NCBI GenBank assembly: GCA_012295275.1 | Contig: CM022674.1 | Location: 17,546,001 to 17,610,000 of the forward strand | Source of the DNA: Chrysomallon squamiferum | Lineage: Eukaryota > Animalia > Mollusca | Length of the DNA: 64,000 nt | Direction of reading: 5' to 3' | In this document: positions 28,678 through 61,157 of the stretch, in pieces | Layout of the letters: the number at the start of each line of letters is the position of its first letter | Position numbering within the stretch: the stretch's first letter is position 1 | The notes under the pieces: generated by a model | What the model saw: the letters and a program-made list of their open reading frames with translations, nothing else | What the model was told of the DNA's origin: nothing | Databases searched by the model: none | Program-made: the position numbers and the translations under genes

Positions 28678-28797
28678 TTTGACTACAAAGCAAAGAAGCA
28701 GAACATCTGAGGAACACAGGAACCCAGAGCCAGAACCTGCCCCAGTCAGCCCATCACCAACCCCTAAAAAGATGGAACAGAACAAATCGAAAATGAG
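28678..28797 (+). CDS. STAND-ANK gene: Pro-rich repeated exon, copy 1 (120 nt, phase 2-2)
   Basis: gtttcag acceptor, GAG|gtaaga donor, open: LTTKQRSRTSEEHRNPEPEPAPVSPSPTPKKMEQNKSKM. Confidence 0.65.
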
Positions 28798-32965: not shown

Positions 32966-33085
32966 TTTGACTACAAAGCAAACCAGGAGATCAGCTGACA
33001 AACACAGGAACCCAGAGCCAGAACCTGCCCCAGTCAGCGCATCACCAACCCCGGAAAAGAGTGAAAAGAACAAATCCAAAATAAT
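32966..33085 (+). CDS. STAND-ANK gene: Pro-rich repeated exon, copy 2 (120 nt, phase 2-2)
   Basis: Intact AG and gtaaga; open: LTTKQTRRSADKHRNPEPEPAPVSASPTPEKSEKNKSKI. Confidence 0.6.
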
Positions 33086-33440: not shown

Positions 33441-33566
33441 GTTGACTATGTCTACTCGACAAAGCAGCAGAACAGTTGAGAAACACAGGAACCCAGAGCC
33501 AGAACCTGCCCCAGTCAGCCCATCACCAACCCCTAAAAAGATGGAAGAGAACAAATCCAAAATGAG
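33441..33566 (+). CDS. STAND-ANK gene: Pro-rich repeated exon, copy 3 (126 nt, phase 2-2)
   Basis: Intact AG and gtaaga; open: LTMSTRQSSRTVEKHRNPEPEPAPVSPSPTPKKMEENKSKM. Confidence 0.65.
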
Positions 33567-33955: not shown

Positions 33956-34081
33956 GTTGACTATGTCTACTCAACAAAGCAGCAGAACAGCTGAGAAACA
34001 CAGGAACCCAGAGCCAGAACCTGCCCCAGTCAGCCCATCACCACCCCCTAAAAAGATGAAAAAGAACAAATCCAAAATGAG
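33956..34081 (+). CDS. STAND-ANK gene: Pro-rich repeated exon, copy 4 (126 nt, phase 2-2)
   Basis: Intact AG and gtaaga; open: LTMSTQQSSRTAEKHRNPEPEPAPVSPSPPPKKMKKNKSKM. Confidence 0.65.
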
Positions 34082-37451: not shown

Positions 37452-37577
37452 GTTGACTGTGTCTACTCGACAAAGCAGCAGAACAGCTGAGAAACACAGG
37501 AACCCAGAGCCAGAACCTGCCCCAGTCAGCGCATCACCAACCCCTAAAAAGATGAAACTGAACAAATCGAAAATAAG
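37452..37577 (+). CDS. STAND-ANK gene: Pro-rich repeated exon, copy 5 (126 nt, phase 2-2)
   Basis: Intact AG and gtaaga; open; phase matches the next exon at 38129. Confidence 0.7.
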
Positions 37578-38128
37578 GTAAGACTAATTAATTAGAATTG
37601 TATTTTTAGGTAACAGTATTGTGAAATTGTGTTTTCCTGAGTATTTCTAAATAACATGGTCAAATACCTCTATTTAAAAAATCAGGAGATTTATTTTAGC
37701 CTTTTTCCATATCACTTTCCATTTGATTAATTTAAAAAAATATTCCAGGCATTTATTTATAGAACATAAATTGAGAATACAGTCTATGAGTCAATGCTAG
37801 TATTAATACAAGGTACTAGAATTAGGTATCTAGTAAAGTGCGCAAGTTGTGTTAGATATTTGGATCAGTGCCTGCTGATTGAATCTTGAGCCGTTTTCAT
37901 TTTAGCAGTGCTCAACACATGATGTATGAAATAGTTTGTACTGTCTGTGGGTAGGTATAAATTAAACATCACTTGTTGTTAATAAGACAGAAGTGACTGC
38001 AGTGGGTTAGTTGTTTTGTTGTCTAACTGTTCCTAAATATTTTGTCTGACCTATATAACAGTAAATAAAATAATAAAACATTTCATTTCTTCCTTCTATA
38101 TAAAAGGTCATTATATTACTTTTTACAG

Positions 38129-38490
38129 GTCAGCCAATATGGATGACAAAAATGAGAGTTCAGAAGTTTCTTCTAACACAACAGCTGTTTCTTCTGGAGA
38201 GACTGTGACAGCTGTTTCTTCTACAGAGACTGTGACAGCTGTTTCTTCTGCAGAGACTGTGACAGCTGTTTCTTCTGCAGATATTGTGACAGCTGTTTCT
38301 TCTGTGGAGACTGTGACAGCTGTTTCTTCTACAGAGACTGTGACAGCTGCTTCTTCTGTGGAGACTCTGACAGCTGTGTCTCTCTTAGACCATACGACAA
38401 GTGTGTCTCACTCTGGCATCACATCTCATTCTTCCTTTGACATCAGACACACTGAGCATCATTTACAACTATCTGTGTCAAGCAGTCGTG
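38129..38490 (+). CDS. STAND-ANK gene: Ser/Thr-rich exon with a 27-bp coding repeat (ETVTAVSSx, about 7 copies), phase 2-1
   Basis: tttttacag acceptor ending 38128, donor GTG|gtaaca at 38491; in frame with ORF 38139-38534. Confidence 0.75.
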
Positions 38491-38968
38491 GTAACACACA
38501 GTATTTCATTGTAGTGTTTACTTTTTTAATATAATATTTCAATATATTATTTATGTTATTGATGGTAAATTCTAAACTGATAAATGTAGTATTTACATTT
38601 GTATCAATACACTGTTTCAATGTATTGTTTAGTTACTTCTTAGGCATTAGTAATTTGACACTTTTAAAAGTTATACTGATAATGAATTAATGTTATTGTT
38701 TTTTGTGGCCTTTTTGTTTAACAGATTAAAACAGTAAAGCAAAATACACTCAAGTTACTGTTTTGTTACTTCATCATGACCATTCTAATTAATCTTGTAT
38801 TGACTGTTAAACATTTTAATACTTTAAAGTAATACTTATTTCATAGCATCTGCACATAATCAGTGAAAAACATTTTAAAATAATATATTGTTATATGCAA
38901 TAATACTGTTAATAGATTGTATTAATACTGTATGCTTTCCTCAAAAAGGTATTTACTCTGTTTCACAG

Positions 38969-39037
38969 GTATTCAAATAAATCTACTTGCAAGTCAATGT
39001 GAAAATGTTCAAATAGGAAACAAAAACAAGTTAATTA
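38969..39037 (+). CDS. STAND-ANK gene: 69-nt exon encoding a RHIM-like motif (GIQINLLASQCENVQIGNKNKLI), phase 1-1
   Basis: tgtttcacag acceptor ending 38968, donor gtaagt at 39038; VQIG at 39007-39018 followed by x-x-N-x-L, as in RIPK1 (IQIGAYNYM) and RIPK3 (VQVGDNNYL). Confidence 0.8.
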
Positions 39038-39428
39038 GTAAGTTGAAAACTAAAAGTTTTCTTTTTCTGTACATGTTTAATATATAAGAGAATACAGATT
39101 AGTGCTTTTCTCTCAGACACTGTTAAATGAAGAACATCCACACATGTGACCCACTTTCGCTAAAGGAGACAAATCTATTTTTTTCTGAGATATGAATATA
39201 TTTGGCATTCACATACAATATCATTTCCAATGTATCATGCATGTATTTTGATGTTGTAGCAGTTTCTAATATTGATGTCACCATGATATCACAAAAAAAA
39301 CATTTAGGAAAAGAATGTACACACACATAAGCAGCATGCAATAGAATACCCAACCAATATTTTGCTGAAACATTCAGGAATTTTATATTGTAGAATTAAG
39401 AAGTAAATGTACATTGAGATGGTAATGT

Positions 39429-39483
<55 letters not shown>

Positions 39484-40004
39484 ATGTGTGTATATGTATG
39501 TATATGTATATATGTGTGTGTATATATATATGTGTGTGTGTGTATTTGTGAAATTGATGGAAGTTTTATCCTGTTTTGGTGCACATGATCTTACTGGATA
39601 TAAAATAAAACAGCAGTGAACTACACAAGTAAAACTACTCAAGTAGATTGATTAACAGACAAGCTGCATAACATAGCTCACTCAGTAATTGTTTAGAAGT
39701 CATTTTACTGCAGTGCTGACCTCTAGCAACTACATAGTTAAATTTTACCATAACAAAATTACTTCTTTTTCTTTAAATGAAACACTGACTAAATTTCTTG
39801 AACCTATTAATGTTGCCCAGAATACAAAGCCCACCTGTCATGTGTGACCTACCTCAACCAATAACCAGTACACTATCCAAGGAGTCTGTGATCTGCTATT
39901 TTCTGCAGTTAAACATTTTTTCTCACCTTTGCTTTTAGAAACTGGTTCTAAAATTGTCATTTTCCTTATCTTATATAAATGTGTATGTTTTAGCAATAGC
40001 TGGT

Positions 40005-40050
<46 letters not shown>

Positions 40051-40151
40051 GACACTTTTTTGATACTGTATGCTCTTCATGTAGCTACATACAGTTTTAG
40101 AAATAACACTTATAGGCTGTGAGTTTAAATAATTTATTTTTCTGTTTGCAG

Positions 40152-40250
40152 CAAAAGGAGCAGTGGTAGAACAAGATGTAAATATGAAAACAGATAAAAA
40201 TCTATCAAGTAACAGAAGTAGTGTATCAGGAGATGAAGCTGTGAAAACCA
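40152..40250 (+). CDS. STAND-ANK gene: 99-nt linker exon, phase 1-1
   Basis: tttctgtttgcag acceptor, gtaagt donor at 40251; open: TKGAVVEQDVNMKTDKNLSSNRSSVSGDEAVKT. Confidence 0.78.
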
Positions 40251-41181
40251 GTAAGTTAAAAAACAAAACTTACTTAATAGATAACAGAAATATATGTTAC
40301 ATTAATCGGTAGTATTTTACCATCTAACAGTATAACCAACACATACAAACACACATATAATACATACATACATACATGCCTACCCACCAAGAGTGCACAA
40401 ATTGTGTGAGCGACAACTTAGTTCACATGATTTGAGTACAAAATTTTGTGCTATGCTGAATGATAGATTACTCATGGATATAATTAAACTGCCATTCATC
40501 ACATCAACAACATTGGCCTGAGTGACTAAGATATATCTCACTTTAGAAATGTTCTATTATGAGACAAATAATATTTAATTGACAAGTCAAAAACAGAAAC
40601 TTTTGTTTTGCCTGCCTGTTTATTAGAATATGCATCAAAATACTCATTAGTATATATATATATAAACGCAAAAAGTCACGAACACACAGATGCAGACATT
40701 TAATATAAAGAATTTTACACATTTTTTAAAACATTGTTTTATTCAATAATAACAAATGACACATATTATTCATACTGTGTGCAGTGTATGATCTACATGT
40801 GGATCTGAGAAATGACGCTTGTAAGTTGTGAAATTGAACAATTTAATCATGAAGCAATCAGATTCCATATGGAAAATGTTATGACACATGTTAATGCTGG
40901 CCAATGAGTAATTTAAAAATTTCACAAATCTGTGAGATTCAAAGCTGCGTTCCTAACACTCGTTGGACAGTTTGAAGAAACTGAAGTCATGGACTACCTA
41001 GGAGAGCTTGTAATTTGGAACTAAATGTTTGAAGTTTATGATTTGTTAATCTTTGTAAAATAATAATTAGAATAACAACAATAATAACAAATGTTACGCC
41101 AGCGCAGTTTTGTTGGCGCATTTTGACATTTGTGCTTATGACATCCCACCCAAACACACACACACACACAGACAGACAGAC

Positions 41182-41223
<42 letters not shown>

Positions 41224-41351
41224 TATAAGTATCATCAATCTTATCTAGATTTTCTTATTAAGAGAATTCTGCATAAATTAAACAAGCCAACACATCTGCC
41301 ATTATTATAACTTGCAACTACTGAAAATCAGTAAAGAACATGATGATGATG

Positions 41352-41393
<42 letters not shown>

Positions 41394-41615
41394 TGAACAA
41401 TAACAGTAACTAAGAAACAATAGTGAGAAAAAAAACCAGTAGTTTTAATACCAGTAGAAATAATTATAGTAAAATATATTAGAAAGATATAATAATAATG
41501 CTATATGTTGACTGTTCCATGGATGGATTACAGAGTTACTGTACAGTTCACATTAATTATTCTTTTTTACTCAGCATCAGTAATAAAAACATGTTTTATT
41601 TTTATATTATTTCAG

Positions 41616-41648
41616 CAAAGACTGATGGACGAACATCCCATATCAAAG
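41616..41648 (+). CDS. STAND-ANK gene: 33-nt linker micro-exon, phase 1-1
   Basis: tatttcag acceptor, AAG|gtattt donor; open: TKTDGRTSHIK. Confidence 0.65.
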
Positions 41649-41687
<39 letters not shown>

Positions 41688-41904
41688 CTGTAAGATGTTA
41701 ATTTATACACCATCTAATACTGTGATAACACAGTATTGTCATTAAATTTTGATGAACTAAAATTATGACCAAAAAATCTGCTGCTTTATTTTAAAAACTT
41801 CACATCTGATGATTTGTTAAAAATTATATTATCTATATCTAAATAGTAAAATATATTTAAAATATGTTAATAATAGATTTTTTTTTTTTAATGTCGTGAT
41901 ACAG

Positions 41905-44900
41905 AGTCTACCAGGTCACAGTTAAACTTAGTTGAAAGAAGTGTCTATGTTGAAACAAGAGCAGAAGAAAGAGGAATAACACTTTTGAAAAAGAATGGTG
42001 TTGTGATTGTAGTAGGAAGTCCAGGTTCAGGAAAGACAACTCTAGGTCTGAAAATGATTAAACAGATAGAGAAAAAAGAAAAAATAGACTCTTACATCGT
42101 GACTCATCACTCTGATTTCAAATACATTCCTGTGTCTAAAGATAAACCATGTATTGTTCTCATTGATGACATATTTGGTAAAACTAATCTTGTATTAGAT
42201 TTTGTGTCGTGCTGGAAACAGCTATTTCCAGAGGTGTGGAGTCTTGTTAAAGACGAGTGTGTGAGATGTATTATTACTTTAAGAAAACAAATATTTACAG
42301 AAATTATAGCCAATCTGAAGGAATTTGATCTGTTCAATGAAAATCATCTCCTTGACCTGCAGAGCGATGAATGTTGTCTGAATTATTATGAGAAGTTAGA
42401 AATTCTAAACAAGTATCTTGAACAAAAGAATGTTACAATGGATGAAGATGATAAATGGACTGTCATTTGCTGTTCATGTACAGAGTTAGGATTTCCTCAG
42501 GTGTGTGTGTATTATGTTAATTCAAGTGATGCACAGAAAAGAGGAGTTAAGTATTTTGAGAAACCTGTAGAATATCTCAGACAACAACTGGAAAATTTGA
42601 AAAATGATAAATCTTCACAGATCAATTACCTGGTTCTACTGCTGATCTTGTTCCAACAAGACAGTCTTAGCATTGATTCACTGGACCCATTTGAAAATGA
42701 CTCTGACAGTGACATAATGAAATTAGTAAGACTGCTAGAGCAAGTCTGTCTGAGTCTGAAAAACACTGGCTTCACAGACATAAAGAAAACAGCTGATGAA
42801 ATGTGTGGTACCTATTTGAAGTGTTCTGACAATAAATACACATTTATTCACCAGTCAGTGTTTGATTCATTGTTTCTGATGTTTTCATCAGAGTTTCCAA
42901 AGAAAGCAGCAGAGTTGCTGGAATTGTGTCCTGTCTCCATGTTGTTAGAATATGTTGTGACGCCTGGAGTGTCTAACAAAAGTCACATTACAATGACTGT
43001 GAAACCTAACTGCTTTGATGTTCTTGCTCGCAGATTTAGTGACTTGTTGGCATCAAGCAATGCCGAAGACATTATTTCACATCCATCATTGAAAGATGAA
43101 GAGTTTTTGAAGTATCTCATAGAGGAAAAAAATACTTTAATGATAAATTGTCTGAAATAGTGCATCAGCAACTACATAAACATGTATATAATTATAAATA
43201 TATATCATCTGTGAACGTAAAACATCTTGATGAAATATTCAGCAATATTTCATGTGTTCTTGACAGTTATTCTATTTGCTTGTGTTATGATACTACCACA
43301 CATTTAACAAATTCATCGTGTGTTCTAAGTGAGTGTATTGTGAAGGGATTAAGAACATTGTTAACAATTTTCACTGAACATCTGTGTAAAATGAAATTAA
43401 CAAATCTGAAAAAAGAACTTCTGAATATGTCCTGTTTGTTTGGTTATGAAGATGTTGTGAGAATGTTGCTAAAATCAGGTAGTATTCCAGCATTTGATAC
43501 ACTGAGTGTAGCTGCTTGTTCAAAAACAGACAGTGCTACCATACTCAAAGAACTGTTACAGTGCAAAACAGAGATGCAGTTAAATGAATATTCACATCTC
43601 TTACTTACTTCTATTAGTTCAGGTAACATCAAGATTGCATGTCTGATAGCTGAATTGATAAATAATGAGAAACACAACAGTGAAATCAAGGAAAAAGCCA
43701 TTAAACTGTTATTGGTTAGGTTCCATAGACAAGTAAGACTTGAATCAGGAAGCTTGCATTTTGGGAACTCGAAGACTTCTGAAGTTGATGTAAGCCATCT
43801 TTTTAGAAATCTAGTTACCATTGATATAATAAACAAAATTAAAGACATTGCTATTATTGCTGTTTGCCTGAGTAATTCAGGTGTTATAAAAGAAATAGTA
43901 AAACTGAAACCTGATTGTTTAAATGATGAGAACAGAGATAAAGTACTTTTAGCAGCAGGAGCATTGGGAGTCTCTGATACAGTGAATTTTCTCATTGAGC
44001 AGAGATGTAATGATGGAGATGAGACCTGGAAGAAAAGTCAAGTACTGAAAGTGGCAGTGATGTGTAACAGTGCAGATGTTGTTCAGTGTCTTCTTGATAA
44101 AGGAGCTGATCCTAATGTGAATATAGCTGTTAATCAGAAATTCATTCAGTTGTTTCATGATGAATTTGTATTCAAACAATTGTCAGGTGTCTATATTAAT
44201 TTTCAGTTGTTGTGTTCATACACACCCCTCCATCTTTCAGTTCTCCGTGGTGATTTAGATATGATAAAATCACTGATAAAGAGACATGCTGATGTTAACG
44301 CAGTAAACAGTGAGGGAAAAACTCCACTTCATGAAGCTGTAAATGCAGTGTCACACAGAAAGGAAATAGCTTTGTTGTTACTGAAAAATGGTGCTGATAC
44401 CGATATAAGAGATGACCACGAGAATTCAGCATTGCACATAGCCTCTCAAATTGACATAGATGTTGTGAAAGAAGTAGTAAAAAAGGGTGCTGAAATAAAT
44501 GCAATTAACACTGAAGAGAAAACTCCTCTTCATGTATCTTTGATGTGTCACAGACCAGAAATAGCTTTATATTTACTAAACCAAGGAGCTGATCCTCATT
44601 TAACAGACAATGATAAGAATTCAGTTTTACACTTAGCAGCTAAACATGGAAATGTAGAAATTGTGAAAGCACTGATTGAAATAGGTGTTGATCTAAATGT
44701 TAAGAACATTCAAGGTGAAACTCCTGTCTTGACATTTCTGAATTGCAACAAATGTTATTTTTTACGAGATCCAGCTACGTCCTCTTATCACAGAAACATA
44801 GCTTTGATTTTACTGGAACATGGAGCTGATCCTTATTTAACAGACAATGATAACAATACTGTTTTACACAAAGCAGCTGAATGTGGAAATGCAGAGTTTC

Positions 44901-46459
44901 TCACAGCAGTAATTGAAACAGGTGTTGATCTAAATGTTAAAAACATCCAAGGTGAAACTCTTCTTATTACACTTCTGAATTACAAAAGATTTAATTTTTT
45001 AAAAGATCCATGTATAACAAAACTATCATTGGTTTTACTGGAACATGGAGCTGATCCTAATTTAACAGACAATGATAACAATTCTGTTTTACACTTAGCA
45101 GCTAAACATGGAAATGTAGAAATTGTGACAGCAGTGATTGAAAAAGGTGTTGATGTAAATGTTAAGAACAGTCAAGGTGAAACTCTTCTTTTTACATTTC
45201 TGAAATACTACTTACCTGATTATCATGACGATCTGTGAGTCCTCTTATATACCAAAACTATCTTTGGTTTTACTGGAACATGGAGCTGATCCTAATTTAA
45301 CAGACAATGACAACAATTCTCTTTTACACTTGGCAGCTCGATATGGAAATGTAGAAATTGTGACAGCACTGATTGATAAAGGTGTTGATGTAAATGTTAA
45401 GAACAGAAAAGGTGAAACTCCTCTTTTTACATTTCTGAAATACAATGAATTCGATTTTTAAAAGATCCACCTGTGTCCTCTAAGACAAACGTAGCTTTGG
45501 TTTTACTGGAACATGGAACTGATCCTAATTTAACAGACAATGACAACAATTCTCTTTTACACTTAGCAGCTCGATATAAATCTCTAGATATTGTGACAGC
45601 ACTGATTGATAAAGGTGTTGATGTAAACGTTAAGAACAGAAAAGGTGAAACTCCTCTTTTTACATTTCTGAAATACAATGAATTTTTTTTTTTAAATCCA
45701 TCCACCTGTGTCCTCTAAGACAAACGTAGCTTTGGTTTTACTGGAACATGGAGCTGATCCTAATTTAACAGACAATGACAACAATTCTCTTTTACACTTG
45801 GCAGCTCGATATGGAAATGTAGAAATTGTGACAGCACTGATTGATAAAGGTGTTGATGTAAATGTTAAGAACAGAAAAGGTGAAACTCCTCTTTTTACAT
45901 TTCTGAAATACTACTTACCTGATTATTTTTCAGACGATCCACCTGTGTCCTCTTATAAGAACAAAACTAGCCTTTACTTTACTGGAACATGGAGCTGATC
46001 CTAATTTAACAGACAATGACAACAATTCTCTTTTACACTTGGCAGCTCGATATGGAAATGTAGAAATTGTGACAGCACTGATTGATAAAGGTGTTGATGT
46101 AAATGTTAAGAACAGTCAAGGTGAAACTCCTCTTTTTACATTTCTGAAATGAAACTCTTTTTTACAATTCTGAAATACAATGAATTTTTTTTTATCAAGT
46201 CCACCTGTCCCTTAAGACAAATGATTTTGTTTTACTGGAACATGGAGCTGATCCTAATTTAACAGACAATGATAGCAATTCTGTTTTACACTTAGCAGCT
46301 GAAGATGGAAATGTAGAAATTGTTATAGCACTGATTGAAAAAGGTGCTGATGTAAATGTTAAAAATGGCCTAGGTGAAACTCCTCTTGACATAGCTAAAA
46401 GTTACAGACATGAAACTGTTTCCTTTTTATTGGAGCATGCAGCTAAAGATAGTAACTAA
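41905..46459 (+). CDS. STAND-ANK gene: large terminal exon with an nSTAND3-type P-loop NTPase, helical region and ankyrin repeats (about 6 apparent frameshifts)
   Basis: Phase-1 acceptor acag ending 41904; YVETRA before the P-loop, Walker A GSPGSGKT (42015-42038), Walker B IVLIDDIFG; many TPLH/LHLAA..G...V..LI..G.DVN ankyrin repeats from about 43950; ends GETPLDIA...AAKDSN, stop 46457-46459. Frame breaks near 43130, 45235, 45455, 45690, 45960 and 46150-46225. Confidence 0.92.
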
Positions 46460-59656: not shown

Positions 59657-59951
59657 CTGTAATAGATAAATAACAAACATAATAACATTTTGTTCTTTTA
59701 AATGTGTAGTAAATAAAAACAGATATAATACAAATATACTTATTATAAAAGTATAATACAAACAATTTGAAACTTTTAATGCTTCTTCGCCTCTTGAGAA
59801 GGGGAAAAAAATAAGTATGAAATATCTCTTAAATTAAAAAAAAACAAAAAAACACAACAACATTTCTAACAAAATGTTCTATCATAAAATCAGTTAACAT
59901 AGCGAAGTAGATAATACAACAGATTAAAATATCGAATGTTAAATGTCTTAC

Positions 59952-60266
59952 ATGACACATCAAGTATTCCAGTGTTGGATGTAACAAGAGTTTTTCCAGG
60001 AATCCCTGCCTTGCAGTAAACAGTGTGTCCATCATCTGACTCAGTCAGTGTCAGTGACACAGAACTCTTTCTTACAGTCAGGTCACCTGATGTGATATTT
60101 ATGTTGGTGATTCCTGTGTTTATCTGTTGATTATTCTTGTACCAGTAAACAGACGAGACTGGGTTGCTAGGTGACGTGACACATGTCAGAGAGACAAAAC
60201 CTTCTCTGACTTGGATTTTATCTTTGTGTGAACTGATGTTTAATAATGTCACCTCTTTTACTTGTA
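59952..60266 (-). CDS. Immunoglobulin-domain exon (315 nt, phase 1-1)
   Basis: VREG..VSLTC.TS.SNP...VYWYKN...SVSLTL...DDG.TVYC.A has the Ig Cys-Trp-Cys pattern; canonical AG and gtaaga; in phase with the TM exon. Confidence 0.9.
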
Positions 60267-61157
60267 CTGTAATAAGCATATAAATAAATAGCAGTATTAC
60301 TGTATCATGCTTTTGTACTAAAATATTATATATTTATTTATTTATTTTTATTATAATTAAAAAATCGATTTAATATATTAATTATTAAGTAACTTCATAA
60401 ACACATATCAGTAATTAATTATATCTTATTGTGACTATATTAAACTTACAAAAAAGTATCGACATTGAATCTTTACTTACCTGGAAAGTGAGCAGTACAT
60501 ATAAACTTGTTACAGACATCATTATTATGCAAAATGTCCGTTCATGAAATCCTTCCAAAAAATAAAGACCATGCAGTGAATCTGCATAATATACTCTTTG
60601 AAAAAAGAAAGAAGAAAATGTCCGATTTTAAAAAATATAGGGCTTTTTGTACCGTGATGCTGAATGACCATGTGGTTAATGTTTCTTGATGATGATGATT
60701 ATTATTATTATTATTGAGATGTAATAAAAATACAATATTCTCATTTGAAATCAAAATTAATAAAAATATTTGTGGTTAATAGTTAACTCAGTGACTATCT
60801 TTGACAACAAATTCTGGAAAATACTATCATATTAACTTGATTTAACACTGTTCATAATACAAAATGAGTAGGAAACACTATAAGTATAATAATTAATTTG
60901 TCTGTTTCCTGTATATATAATTAAATGCTAATCTGCGAGTTAGTAATCTTGAAGAAAGACAAGGAATTCTTTACATTCATTATAATTAATTAATATCTTC
61001 ACTAATGTTATCTAATGGTAAAAGTTTCAATGGCAAAAGAGCAGATAATAACCAGACCTTGTGAACAGATGAAAATCTGATGGAATGCATCAGAGAAATT
61101 GATATAACTATAAAGTGATGAATAATAATGTATAATGACTGTAAACACTTGGCATAT

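Follow-up and report, generated by a model that had tools for sequence, protein, structure and literature searches.

An nSTAND3-ankyrin receptor gene of the mollusc Chrysomallon squamiferum with a RHIM-like motif in its N-terminal tail: a tentative candidate for amyloid-type signalling

Amyloid-templated signalling by NLR-type receptors is so far known in fungi and bacteria and predicted in amphioxus; could a mollusc use it as well? The question is raised by a gene at 38129..46459 of a 64,000-nt stretch of Chrysomallon squamiferum DNA (GenBank assembly GCA_012295275.1, contig CM022674.1, positions 17,546,001 to 17,610,000, forward strand; this whole stretch is called the window, and positions count from its first letter). 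An initial annotation, made without database searches, had read there a STAND NTPase with C-terminal ankyrin repeats, preceded by a RHIM, the motif whose core tetrad is (V/I)-Q-(V/I/L/C)-G (PMC13506858). Our favoured answer, held tentatively and with somewhat less than even confidence, is that the gene encodes an NLR-like nSTAND3-ankyrin receptor whose N-terminal tail, free of domains, bears a RHIM-like motif as its signalling tag, encoded by a cassette exon of 69 nt.

Gene model, transcripts and receptor architecture

The gene as we read it comprises the following parts:

37452..37577, + strand: upstream coding exon E0 (the gene-nearest of its copies), 126 nt between AG and GT, in frame into exon 1
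38129..38490, + strand: exon 1, with an ATG at 38139 and a donor at 38490
38969..39037, + strand: exon 2, a phase 1-1 cassette exon of 69 nt, encoding NLLASQCENVQIGNKNKLI
39007-39033, + strand: RHIM-like core VQIGNKNKL within exon 2, its tetrad VQIG at 39007-39018
40152..40250, + strand: exon 3, 99 nt, phase 1-1
41616..41648, + strand: exon 4, 33 nt, phase 1-1, coding the start of the family-conserved linker directly before the NTPase
41905..43160, + strand: exon 5, first frame, the nSTAND3 NTPase with its predicted helical and winged-helix parts, stop at 43158-43160
43100..45238, + strand: second frame, 712 codons, a family-specific helical region and then ankyrin repeats from ~44165, stop at 45236-45238
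45239..46459, + strand: five further ankyrin units in shifting frames, final stop at 46457-46459

Most of what the initial annotation had claimed about this structure is sound. Its five exons do have canonical ends, with GT..AG at 4/4 introns, and when joined they run without a stop into the NTPase. The donors of introns 1-4 read GTAACA, GTAAGT, GTAAGT and GTATTT, all four acceptors combine a pyrimidine-rich tract with a terminal CAG, and the introns measure 478, 1114, 1365 and 256 nt. Once joined, the exons can be read for 602 codons, beginning with the ATG at 38139 and ending with the stop at 43158-43160; in this frame VQIG is residue 131 and the Walker A sequence (GSPGSGKT) starts at residue 222; the motif thus lies 91 residues from Walker A, and not about 80 as annotated. 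The N-terminus is, as had been described, low in complexity and without a visible death-fold or TIR domain: exon 1 is occupied by a 27-nt (9-residue) tandem repeat (7.4 copies, 38181-38381), and Pfam, scored here on exon-by-exon translations, found no family in its 117 residues. The overall architecture also stands as annotated: a domain-free N-terminus with a RHIM-like motif, then a STAND NTPase, then ankyrin repeats. Since exons 2, 3 and 4 are all of phase 1-1, each could be skipped or swapped without a change of frame. The introns are rich in microsatellites (39431-39545, 40006-40048, 41154-41222, 41352-41393 and 41652-41683), among them (TGTA)n, (AC)n twice, (ATA)n and a T32 run.

The gene begins upstream of the first annotated exon, with the coding exon E0 at 37452-37577, whose flanks read TGTTTCAG / GTTGAC ... 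AATAAG / GTAAGA (slashes marking the exon boundaries), and the chain E0-E1-E2-E3-E4-E5 reads open. A DNA search of the window, confirmed by blastn and alignment, gave four further copies, which are candidate alternative 5' exons or duplication remnants:

28678-28797, + strand: E0 copy
32966-33085, + strand: E0 copy
33441-33566, + strand: E0 copy
33956-34081, + strand: E0 copy

These four are 88-94% identical over 141 nt to the 37480-37620 copy, and the total of 5 matches on the + strand compares with 0.02 expected. The copies are 120-126 nt long with AG/GT flanks and encode a Pro-rich, K-rich leader, with an ATG near the start in 2/5 of them.

For transcript evidence we used five public runs of one organism, X1-X5, that match parts of the window. 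X1-X4 are RNA; X5 is probably DNA of the same species, because its depth over introns is about that over exons and some of its contigs are identical to the window. The RNA contigs differ from the window by ~5-6% in exon 3 (5 and 6 of 98 letters), from which we take them to derive from another allele or a close paralogue. The joint between exons 2 and 3 (39038>40153, offset rightwards by one base from the GT..AG cut) has one supporting contig in each of X1, X3 and X4, and that between exons 3 and 4 (40250>41616, GT..AG) is found in X1 (2 contigs), X3 and X4, while neither joint occurs in RNA run X2 or DNA run X5. One X3 contig has exon-4-like sequence placed between 40250 and 41903, and four X4 contigs have such sequence ahead of 41903; together with the exon 3-exon 4 joint this indicates that the exon 3-4-5 chain is used. 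Exon 2 is represented in transcripts by its motif-coding part: on the exon-2 side of the spliced contigs the 3' 45 nt (38994-39038), spanning the codons for QCENVQIGNKNKLI, are aligned, so that the motif-coding part is retained in spliced RNA in frame with the NTPase.

At the 5' side the picture is more varied. The donor at 38490 is used, as shown by RNA loose ends behind 38490 in three X3 contigs, and the RNA contigs that leave exon 1 there continue into sequence absent from the window. RNA loose ends before 38130 (four contigs in X3, five in X4) end in E0-like sequence that matches the window's E0 copies. The alignment of the spliced contigs to exon 2 starts at 38994, right behind an AG at 38992-38993, and the boundary between 38993 and 38994 may be an alternative acceptor or merely the end of a truncated alignment. 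If E0 were spliced straight to 38994, a hypothetical isoform, the VQIG frame would be kept with a Met 13 residues before the motif, whereas splicing of exon 1 to 38994 would lose that frame.

The NTPase is the firmest part of the receptor. Pfam nSTAND3 (PF20720) matches 41907-43160 at 90.3 bits against a cut-off of 27.2 (E 1.3e-25), with NACHT at 20.3 bits, under its own cut-off. Walker A lies at 42015-42038 and the Walker B Asp at 42165-42167, and in an alignment of 34 sequences G37, G40, G42, K43 and D87 are nearly invariant. An AlphaFold2 model of 41907-43160 built on these 34 sequences has a mean predicted local distance difference test score (pLDDT) of 91.5 and a predicted TM-score (pTM) of 0.88; its best Foldseek matches are STAND/AAA+ proteins, namely NRC1 NB-ARC, NRC2 NB-ARC, MalT, NLRP2, SAMD9, Apaf-1, NOD2 and Avs5, the STAND matches reaching E 1e-4 to 1e-6 and TM up to 0.46. 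The module is accordingly modelled with the nucleotide-binding, helical and winged-helix fold of solved STANDs. A single-sequence search of the PDB with the NTPase gave P-loop matches only, and a PDB profile search with the family alignment was swamped by ankyrin proteins. Downstream, Pfam ankyrin families are strong in every open reading frame (ORF) piece (Ank_2 2.9e-59 in 43100-45238).

The nearest relatives of the NTPase module are in the vent snail Gigantopelta aegis (45-48% identity), then in abalones (~30%) and bivalves, and its homologues number 953 cluster representatives at E<=0.001. Judged by this homology, the gene belongs to a large, mollusc-expanded and lineage-specific nSTAND3-ankyrin family of NLR-like receptors, whose alignment shows conservation of the linker that leads into the NTPase, encoded by exon 4 and the beginning of exon 5. 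The closest counterparts to the whole architecture are Gigantopelta aegis paralogues (P0001-P0006, P0019 and P0020 in our numbering of homologues; e.g. XP_041355392.1), which share the tandem-repeat N-terminus, conserved linker, nSTAND3 module and ankyrins. These are uncharacterised RefSeq models and, unlike the window, they lack a canonical tetrad.

What occupies the position of the motif in other members of the family? Of the homologues, 48 have >=150 residues before Walker A, and we scanned 23 of these with Pfam. The slot holds HEPN_DZIP3 in eight, SAM in two, and caspase, Death, DED (below cut-off) and Ig in one each, and is empty at E<=1e-5 in 8/23. Because relatives hold caspase, Death, DED, SAM and HEPN there, we regard the slot before the NTPase as the place of an effector or adaptor, in the manner of NLRs. 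Relatives otherwise have highly variable N-terminal tails made up of tandem repeats.

The motif and its look-alikes

The initial annotation had identified VQIG and the residues behind it as a RHIM, and in its pattern the sequence agrees well with that. VQIG fits the core tetrad, and in G-N-K-N-K-L the N lies three and the L five residues after the tetrad G, as in the consensus that the annotation had used. The strict pattern [IV]Q[IVL]G..N.[ML] has a single match in the window over all six frames, where 200 block shuffles average 0.02, and this match lies in frame, within ~220 residues before a STAND NTPase. RHIM is also the sole Pfam family reported for exon 2 (PF12721; 22 residues; 13.4 bits, E 0.06), a score that adds little beyond the tetrad, N and L because only profile positions 9-21/22 are covered. 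A protein feature search with exon 2 gave no usable match.

One alternative is that the likeness arose by chance in a fast-evolving, low-complexity, N/K/I-rich tail (in a genome of 30% G+C), which would then be a flexible leader of a receptor that signals by other means. The motif was picked from a very large scan, so that a look-elsewhere effect applies, and the high variability of relatives' tails points the same way. Against chance stand the 0.02 strict matches expected per window, when one is found in frame at this distance from a STAND NTPase; the occurrence of C-x-x-V-Q-F-G or similar at the same slot in Gigantopelta paralogues; and the position of the motif on its own phase-symmetric exon, retained in spliced RNA. 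Taking these together with the profile tests given below, we consider chance unlikely, though a serious contender.

Gigantopelta P0020 has NLTVKDC(R/S)(S/N)VQFGCTTHKHY twice, one copy before each of two NTPase modules, and the look-alikes of P0003 (VHVG) and P0006 (TNVG) read NQNVHVGDVTHKHY and NCRETNVGCTVNKY; all sit 50-100 residues before their NTPases. Points of agreement between NLLASQCENVQIGNKNKLI of the window and this group are N-L, a Cys placed three residues ahead of the tetrad, V-Q and G. P0020, a protein of 3380 aa, comprises two full motif-NTPase units (motifs at 12-36 and 1669-1692, best NTPase match at 1769-2154) and is either an annotation-fused tandem pair or a genuine double receptor. 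A profile of the Gigantopelta look-alikes and the window found Potamilus P0073 (NNSSGVEIGCVVNK, VEIG) at 10.2 bits (E 0.006), and a six-seed motif profile gained no further member: its best non-seed, P0050, scored 4.1 bits, and shuffles reached 5.1. In Solemya velum, P0098 carries VQVG and IQIGETN in tandem before its NTPase and P0066 carries IQLG there; in Haliotis asinina, P0101 has IQLG 190 residues upstream of Walker A. Counted as look-alikes are three Gigantopelta proteins (4 copies), one of Potamilus and two of Solemya. By position and pattern, though not by statistical significance, homology of the window's motif with the Gigantopelta look-alikes is plausible.

Another way to view these sequences is as a conserved short linear motif of peltospirid nSTAND3 proteins with a non-amyloid role, such as adaptor docking or a Cys-dependent modification or metal site. 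The Cys common to the window and Gigantopelta is consistent with this, as are a second Cys and H-x-H after the tetrad in P0020 and P0003, which are no RHIM feature, and the substitutions within the tetrad, where the third position is F in P0020 and the Q is replaced by H (P0003) or N (P0006). The window's own motif lacks the second Cys and the His residues, however, and its four tetrad positions and the following N and L all fit RHIM. For this gene we hold a non-amyloid linear motif to be improbable.

The tetrad [IV]Q[IVLCF]G is enriched in the family, with 5 matches in 128 homologue N-terminal segments against 1.65 expected from shuffles (P=0.023). The canonical tetrad occurs 4 times in the same segments against 1.47 expected, an enrichment that is marginal (P=0.058), and the latter result belongs with a series of others that weigh against our favoured reading. 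On exon 2, Pfam RHIM fails to reach its gathering cut-off of 20. Twelve homologue N-termini (8 + 4) were scanned and not one matched Pfam RHIM at E<=10, a null result to be read with the fact that HMMER filters remove most matches above E ~0.1. A leave-one-out profile, made from the Gigantopelta look-alikes only, was non-significant on the window's exon 2 (5.0 bits, rank 5/3378 six-frame pieces, shuffles reaching 11.9). All of these results speak both for chance and against a RHIM. In addition, a canonical tetrad lies N-terminal to Walker A in only 3/146 homologues; Lys stands at two positions behind the window's tetrad; counted from the ATG at 38139, the motif comes 131 residues into the protein, whereas fungal NLRs carry theirs at the very N-terminus; and the 64-kb window holds no second copy of the motif in six frames, by the strict or the core-plus-N pattern. 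On the transcript side, the 5' 24 nt of exon 2 are uncovered by spliced RNA contigs, and the exon 1-exon 2 junction is not directly seen in the RNA contigs of X1-X4. Finally, the gene copy in the assembly has at least five frame breaks, to which we return below.

Thus, of the RHIM identity originally claimed, the fit of tetrad, N and L stands, and agreement with the family profile does not extend to the Pfam cut-off or to the N-termini of homologues. Because the score stays below that cut-off, the sole quantitative criterion available, we class the motif as RHIM-like and not as RHIM.

Conserved sequences of other kinds occur in the tails of abalone relatives. Haliotis P0007, P0009, P0010, P0035 and P0036 share a different conserved N-terminal island of ~35 residues, of the form C-x-(K/R)-(P/T)-x-(L/V)-(I/V)-N-(E/D)-I ... 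(S/T)-Y-(I/V)-N, the remainder of their tails being variable. Non-NLR carriers of this island were sought with 75 residues of P0009 among proteins 133-2000 residues long; of 10 candidates, none but P0009 itself and its orthologue P0010 emerged, the word-index search being weak for this purpose. A third motif class, G-M-(T/S)-G-G-x-A-x-N-(C/S)-x-(I/V)-x-G, precedes the NTPase in Haliotis P0037, P0041, P0042 and P0044, and at the P0042 locus there are also short isoforms, 198-219 residues long, that fall into the same 90% cluster.

Proposed signalling and known systems

In the reading we favour, that of a RHIM-like tag on an nSTAND3-ankyrin receptor, the ankyrin repeats would sense a ligand, and nucleotide-dependent oligomerisation of the NTPase would gather several N-terminal tails. 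The clustered motifs are predicted to stack as beta-strands, which would template a partner with a matching RHIM. The existence of such a partner is made plausible by RIPK1 homologues of spiralians, zebra mussel and Lingula among them, which are reported to combine a RHIM tetrad with a death domain and to activate NF-kB in a RHIM-dependent manner (PMC12119088); a RIPK1-like kinase of this kind is the candidate we would propose.

The initial annotation overstated the novelty of the arrangement: RHIM-NACHT-repeat proteins of Branchiostoma floridae were described in 2014, with the parallel to fungal NWD2/HET-S drawn in that account (Kajava et al., PMC4262963). The present protein shares with these a RHIM or RHIM-like motif in the effector slot ahead of a STAND NTPase, repeats at the C-terminus, an invertebrate host and a place in a lineage-specific immune expansion (PMC4262963). 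It differs from them in that theirs is a NACHT module in a chordate with a significant RHIM profile match, and here an nSTAND3 module in a mollusc carries a sub-threshold one (PMC4262963). If real, the receptor would therefore add a new NTPase clade and a new phylum to a known RHIM-STAND arrangement, and not a new category. Our literature searches found no paper linking RHIM with nSTAND NTPases, no mollusc paper on nSTAND3 by title, and nothing relevant on RHIM with mollusc terms; in the paper that defines nSTAND1 and nSTAND2 (Kaur et al. 2021, PMC8195603) the word 'RHIM' has zero occurrences.

With the fungal NWD2/HET-S system and the PP-motif NLRs the gene would share a short beta-forming motif in place of a folded effector domain, and the proposed logic of templating driven by oligomerisation (PMC4262963). 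The fungal motifs, in contrast, lie within the first ~30 residues, with an adjacent partner gene that has the matching motif, whereas here the motif is at residue 131 or later, and, unlike in fungal and bacterial NLR-effector pairs, no matching motif was found in a neighbouring effector gene in six frames of the 64 kb. The order of a core tetrad followed by x-x-N-x-(M/L) is that of RIPK1, RIPK3, ZBP1 and TRIF and of spiralian RIPK1 (PMC13506858, PMC12119088); vertebrate and spiralian RHIMs are attached to kinases or adaptors, here the attachment is to a STAND NTPase, and the Pfam model rejects the window's motif. A further parallel is offered by the cryptic RHIMs of arthropods (PGRP-LC/LE and Imd), which are degenerate RHIM-like motifs of invertebrate immune receptors (PMC13506858). 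Those lack a Q-containing tetrad ('VxxG') and are carried by PGRPs and adaptors and not by STAND NTPases (PMC13506858).

The significance of the motif depends on whether it works as a RHIM. If it does, amyloid-templated NLR signalling would reach molluscs and a second NTPase clade, nSTAND3 beside NACHT, and the spiralian RIPK1-RHIM proteins would gain an upstream receptor. If it does not, we are dealing with an unremarkable and partly decayed gene within a large immune family specific to its lineage. A wider generalisation can be formulated, in which molluscan nSTAND3 receptors would signal through short beta-strand motifs near their N-termini, serving as amyloid-type modules: RHIM-like ones in vent snails and in Solemya, and conserved ones of other classes in abalones. 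They would feed a spiralian RIPK1-like RHIM kinase and be carried on swappable or skippable phase-symmetric cassette exons. We give this generalisation little credence at present; were it true, lophotrochozoans would have their own equivalent of the NLR amyloid signalling of fungi and bacteria.

Integrity of this gene copy and neighbouring reading frames

Whatever the motif does, is this copy of the gene able to make the receptor? The effector slot, NTPase and repeats are all present in order, but the reading frame breaks at 43126-43132 and after 45238. The gene copy is defective or mis-assembled in its 3' half, and its 5' half (to 43158) is intact.

The first break concerns the ORFs 41892-43160 and 43100-45238, which are in different frames and whose overlap contains a run of seven A:

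43126-43132, + strand: A7 run, site of the frame break relative to homologues; one A more or two fewer would join the two ORFs

In tblastn comparisons, three Gigantopelta proteins align in one frame up to ~43124 and in another from ~43292 on. The unaligned gap at the switch is 55 residues in protein and 56 in DNA for P0004 (36 and 62 for P0002), and the similar lengths for P0004 lead us to a frameshift rather than an intron. A 49-nt intron at 43112-43160 was considered as the cause and rejected, being of the wrong phase, while the homologue gaps fit a plain frameshift. The break may be an error, an allele or slippage. Read in frame, the run gives A AAA AAT, the pattern of a -1 slippery heptamer, and the two ORFs would be united by a shift of -1.

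The second set of breaks lies in the repeats. After the stop at 45236-45238, five ankyrin units continue to 46459 in frames 3, 2, 3, 1 and 2, the last being a divergent terminal repeat that ends at 46459. The array at 44585-46387 is a tandem repeat of 7.6 copies (84% match) with a period of 235 nt, which is not a multiple of 3; the out-of-frame last units suggest recent amplification of an out-of-frame unit or a collapsed assembly.

Do these breaks mean that the window's copy is non-functional or truncated, as a pseudogene or defective allele, or that the assembly is in error? Support for this comes from the frame switch at the A7 run relative to all three Gigantopelta proteins, with a run length in RNA equal to the window's (no indel in X1-X3, at depths of 14.3, 23.3 and 51), and from the stop and shifting frames of the ankyrin units with their 235-nt period. 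On the other side, the second ORF of 712 codons is still open, for which reason any break would be recent or an error, and exons 0-5 are intact to 43158; two contigs of X5 (DNA), moreover, have a net loss of two letters at the A run that restores the frame (102.6 and 115.4 of a depth of 516). We judge it quite possible, with the balance leaning the other way, that this copy is dead or broken by assembly errors. In an otherwise active family, the assembly copy may represent a defective allele or a pseudogene of recent origin.

Elsewhere in the window, we scanned the other long ORFs (n=8) and found a Pfam domain above its cut-off in only one, an immunoglobulin (Ig) domain:

59890-60333, - strand: C2-set Ig ORF piece, Pfam C2-set_2 at 34 bits, above cut-off

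This piece is probably an exon of a neighbouring gene on the opposite strand.

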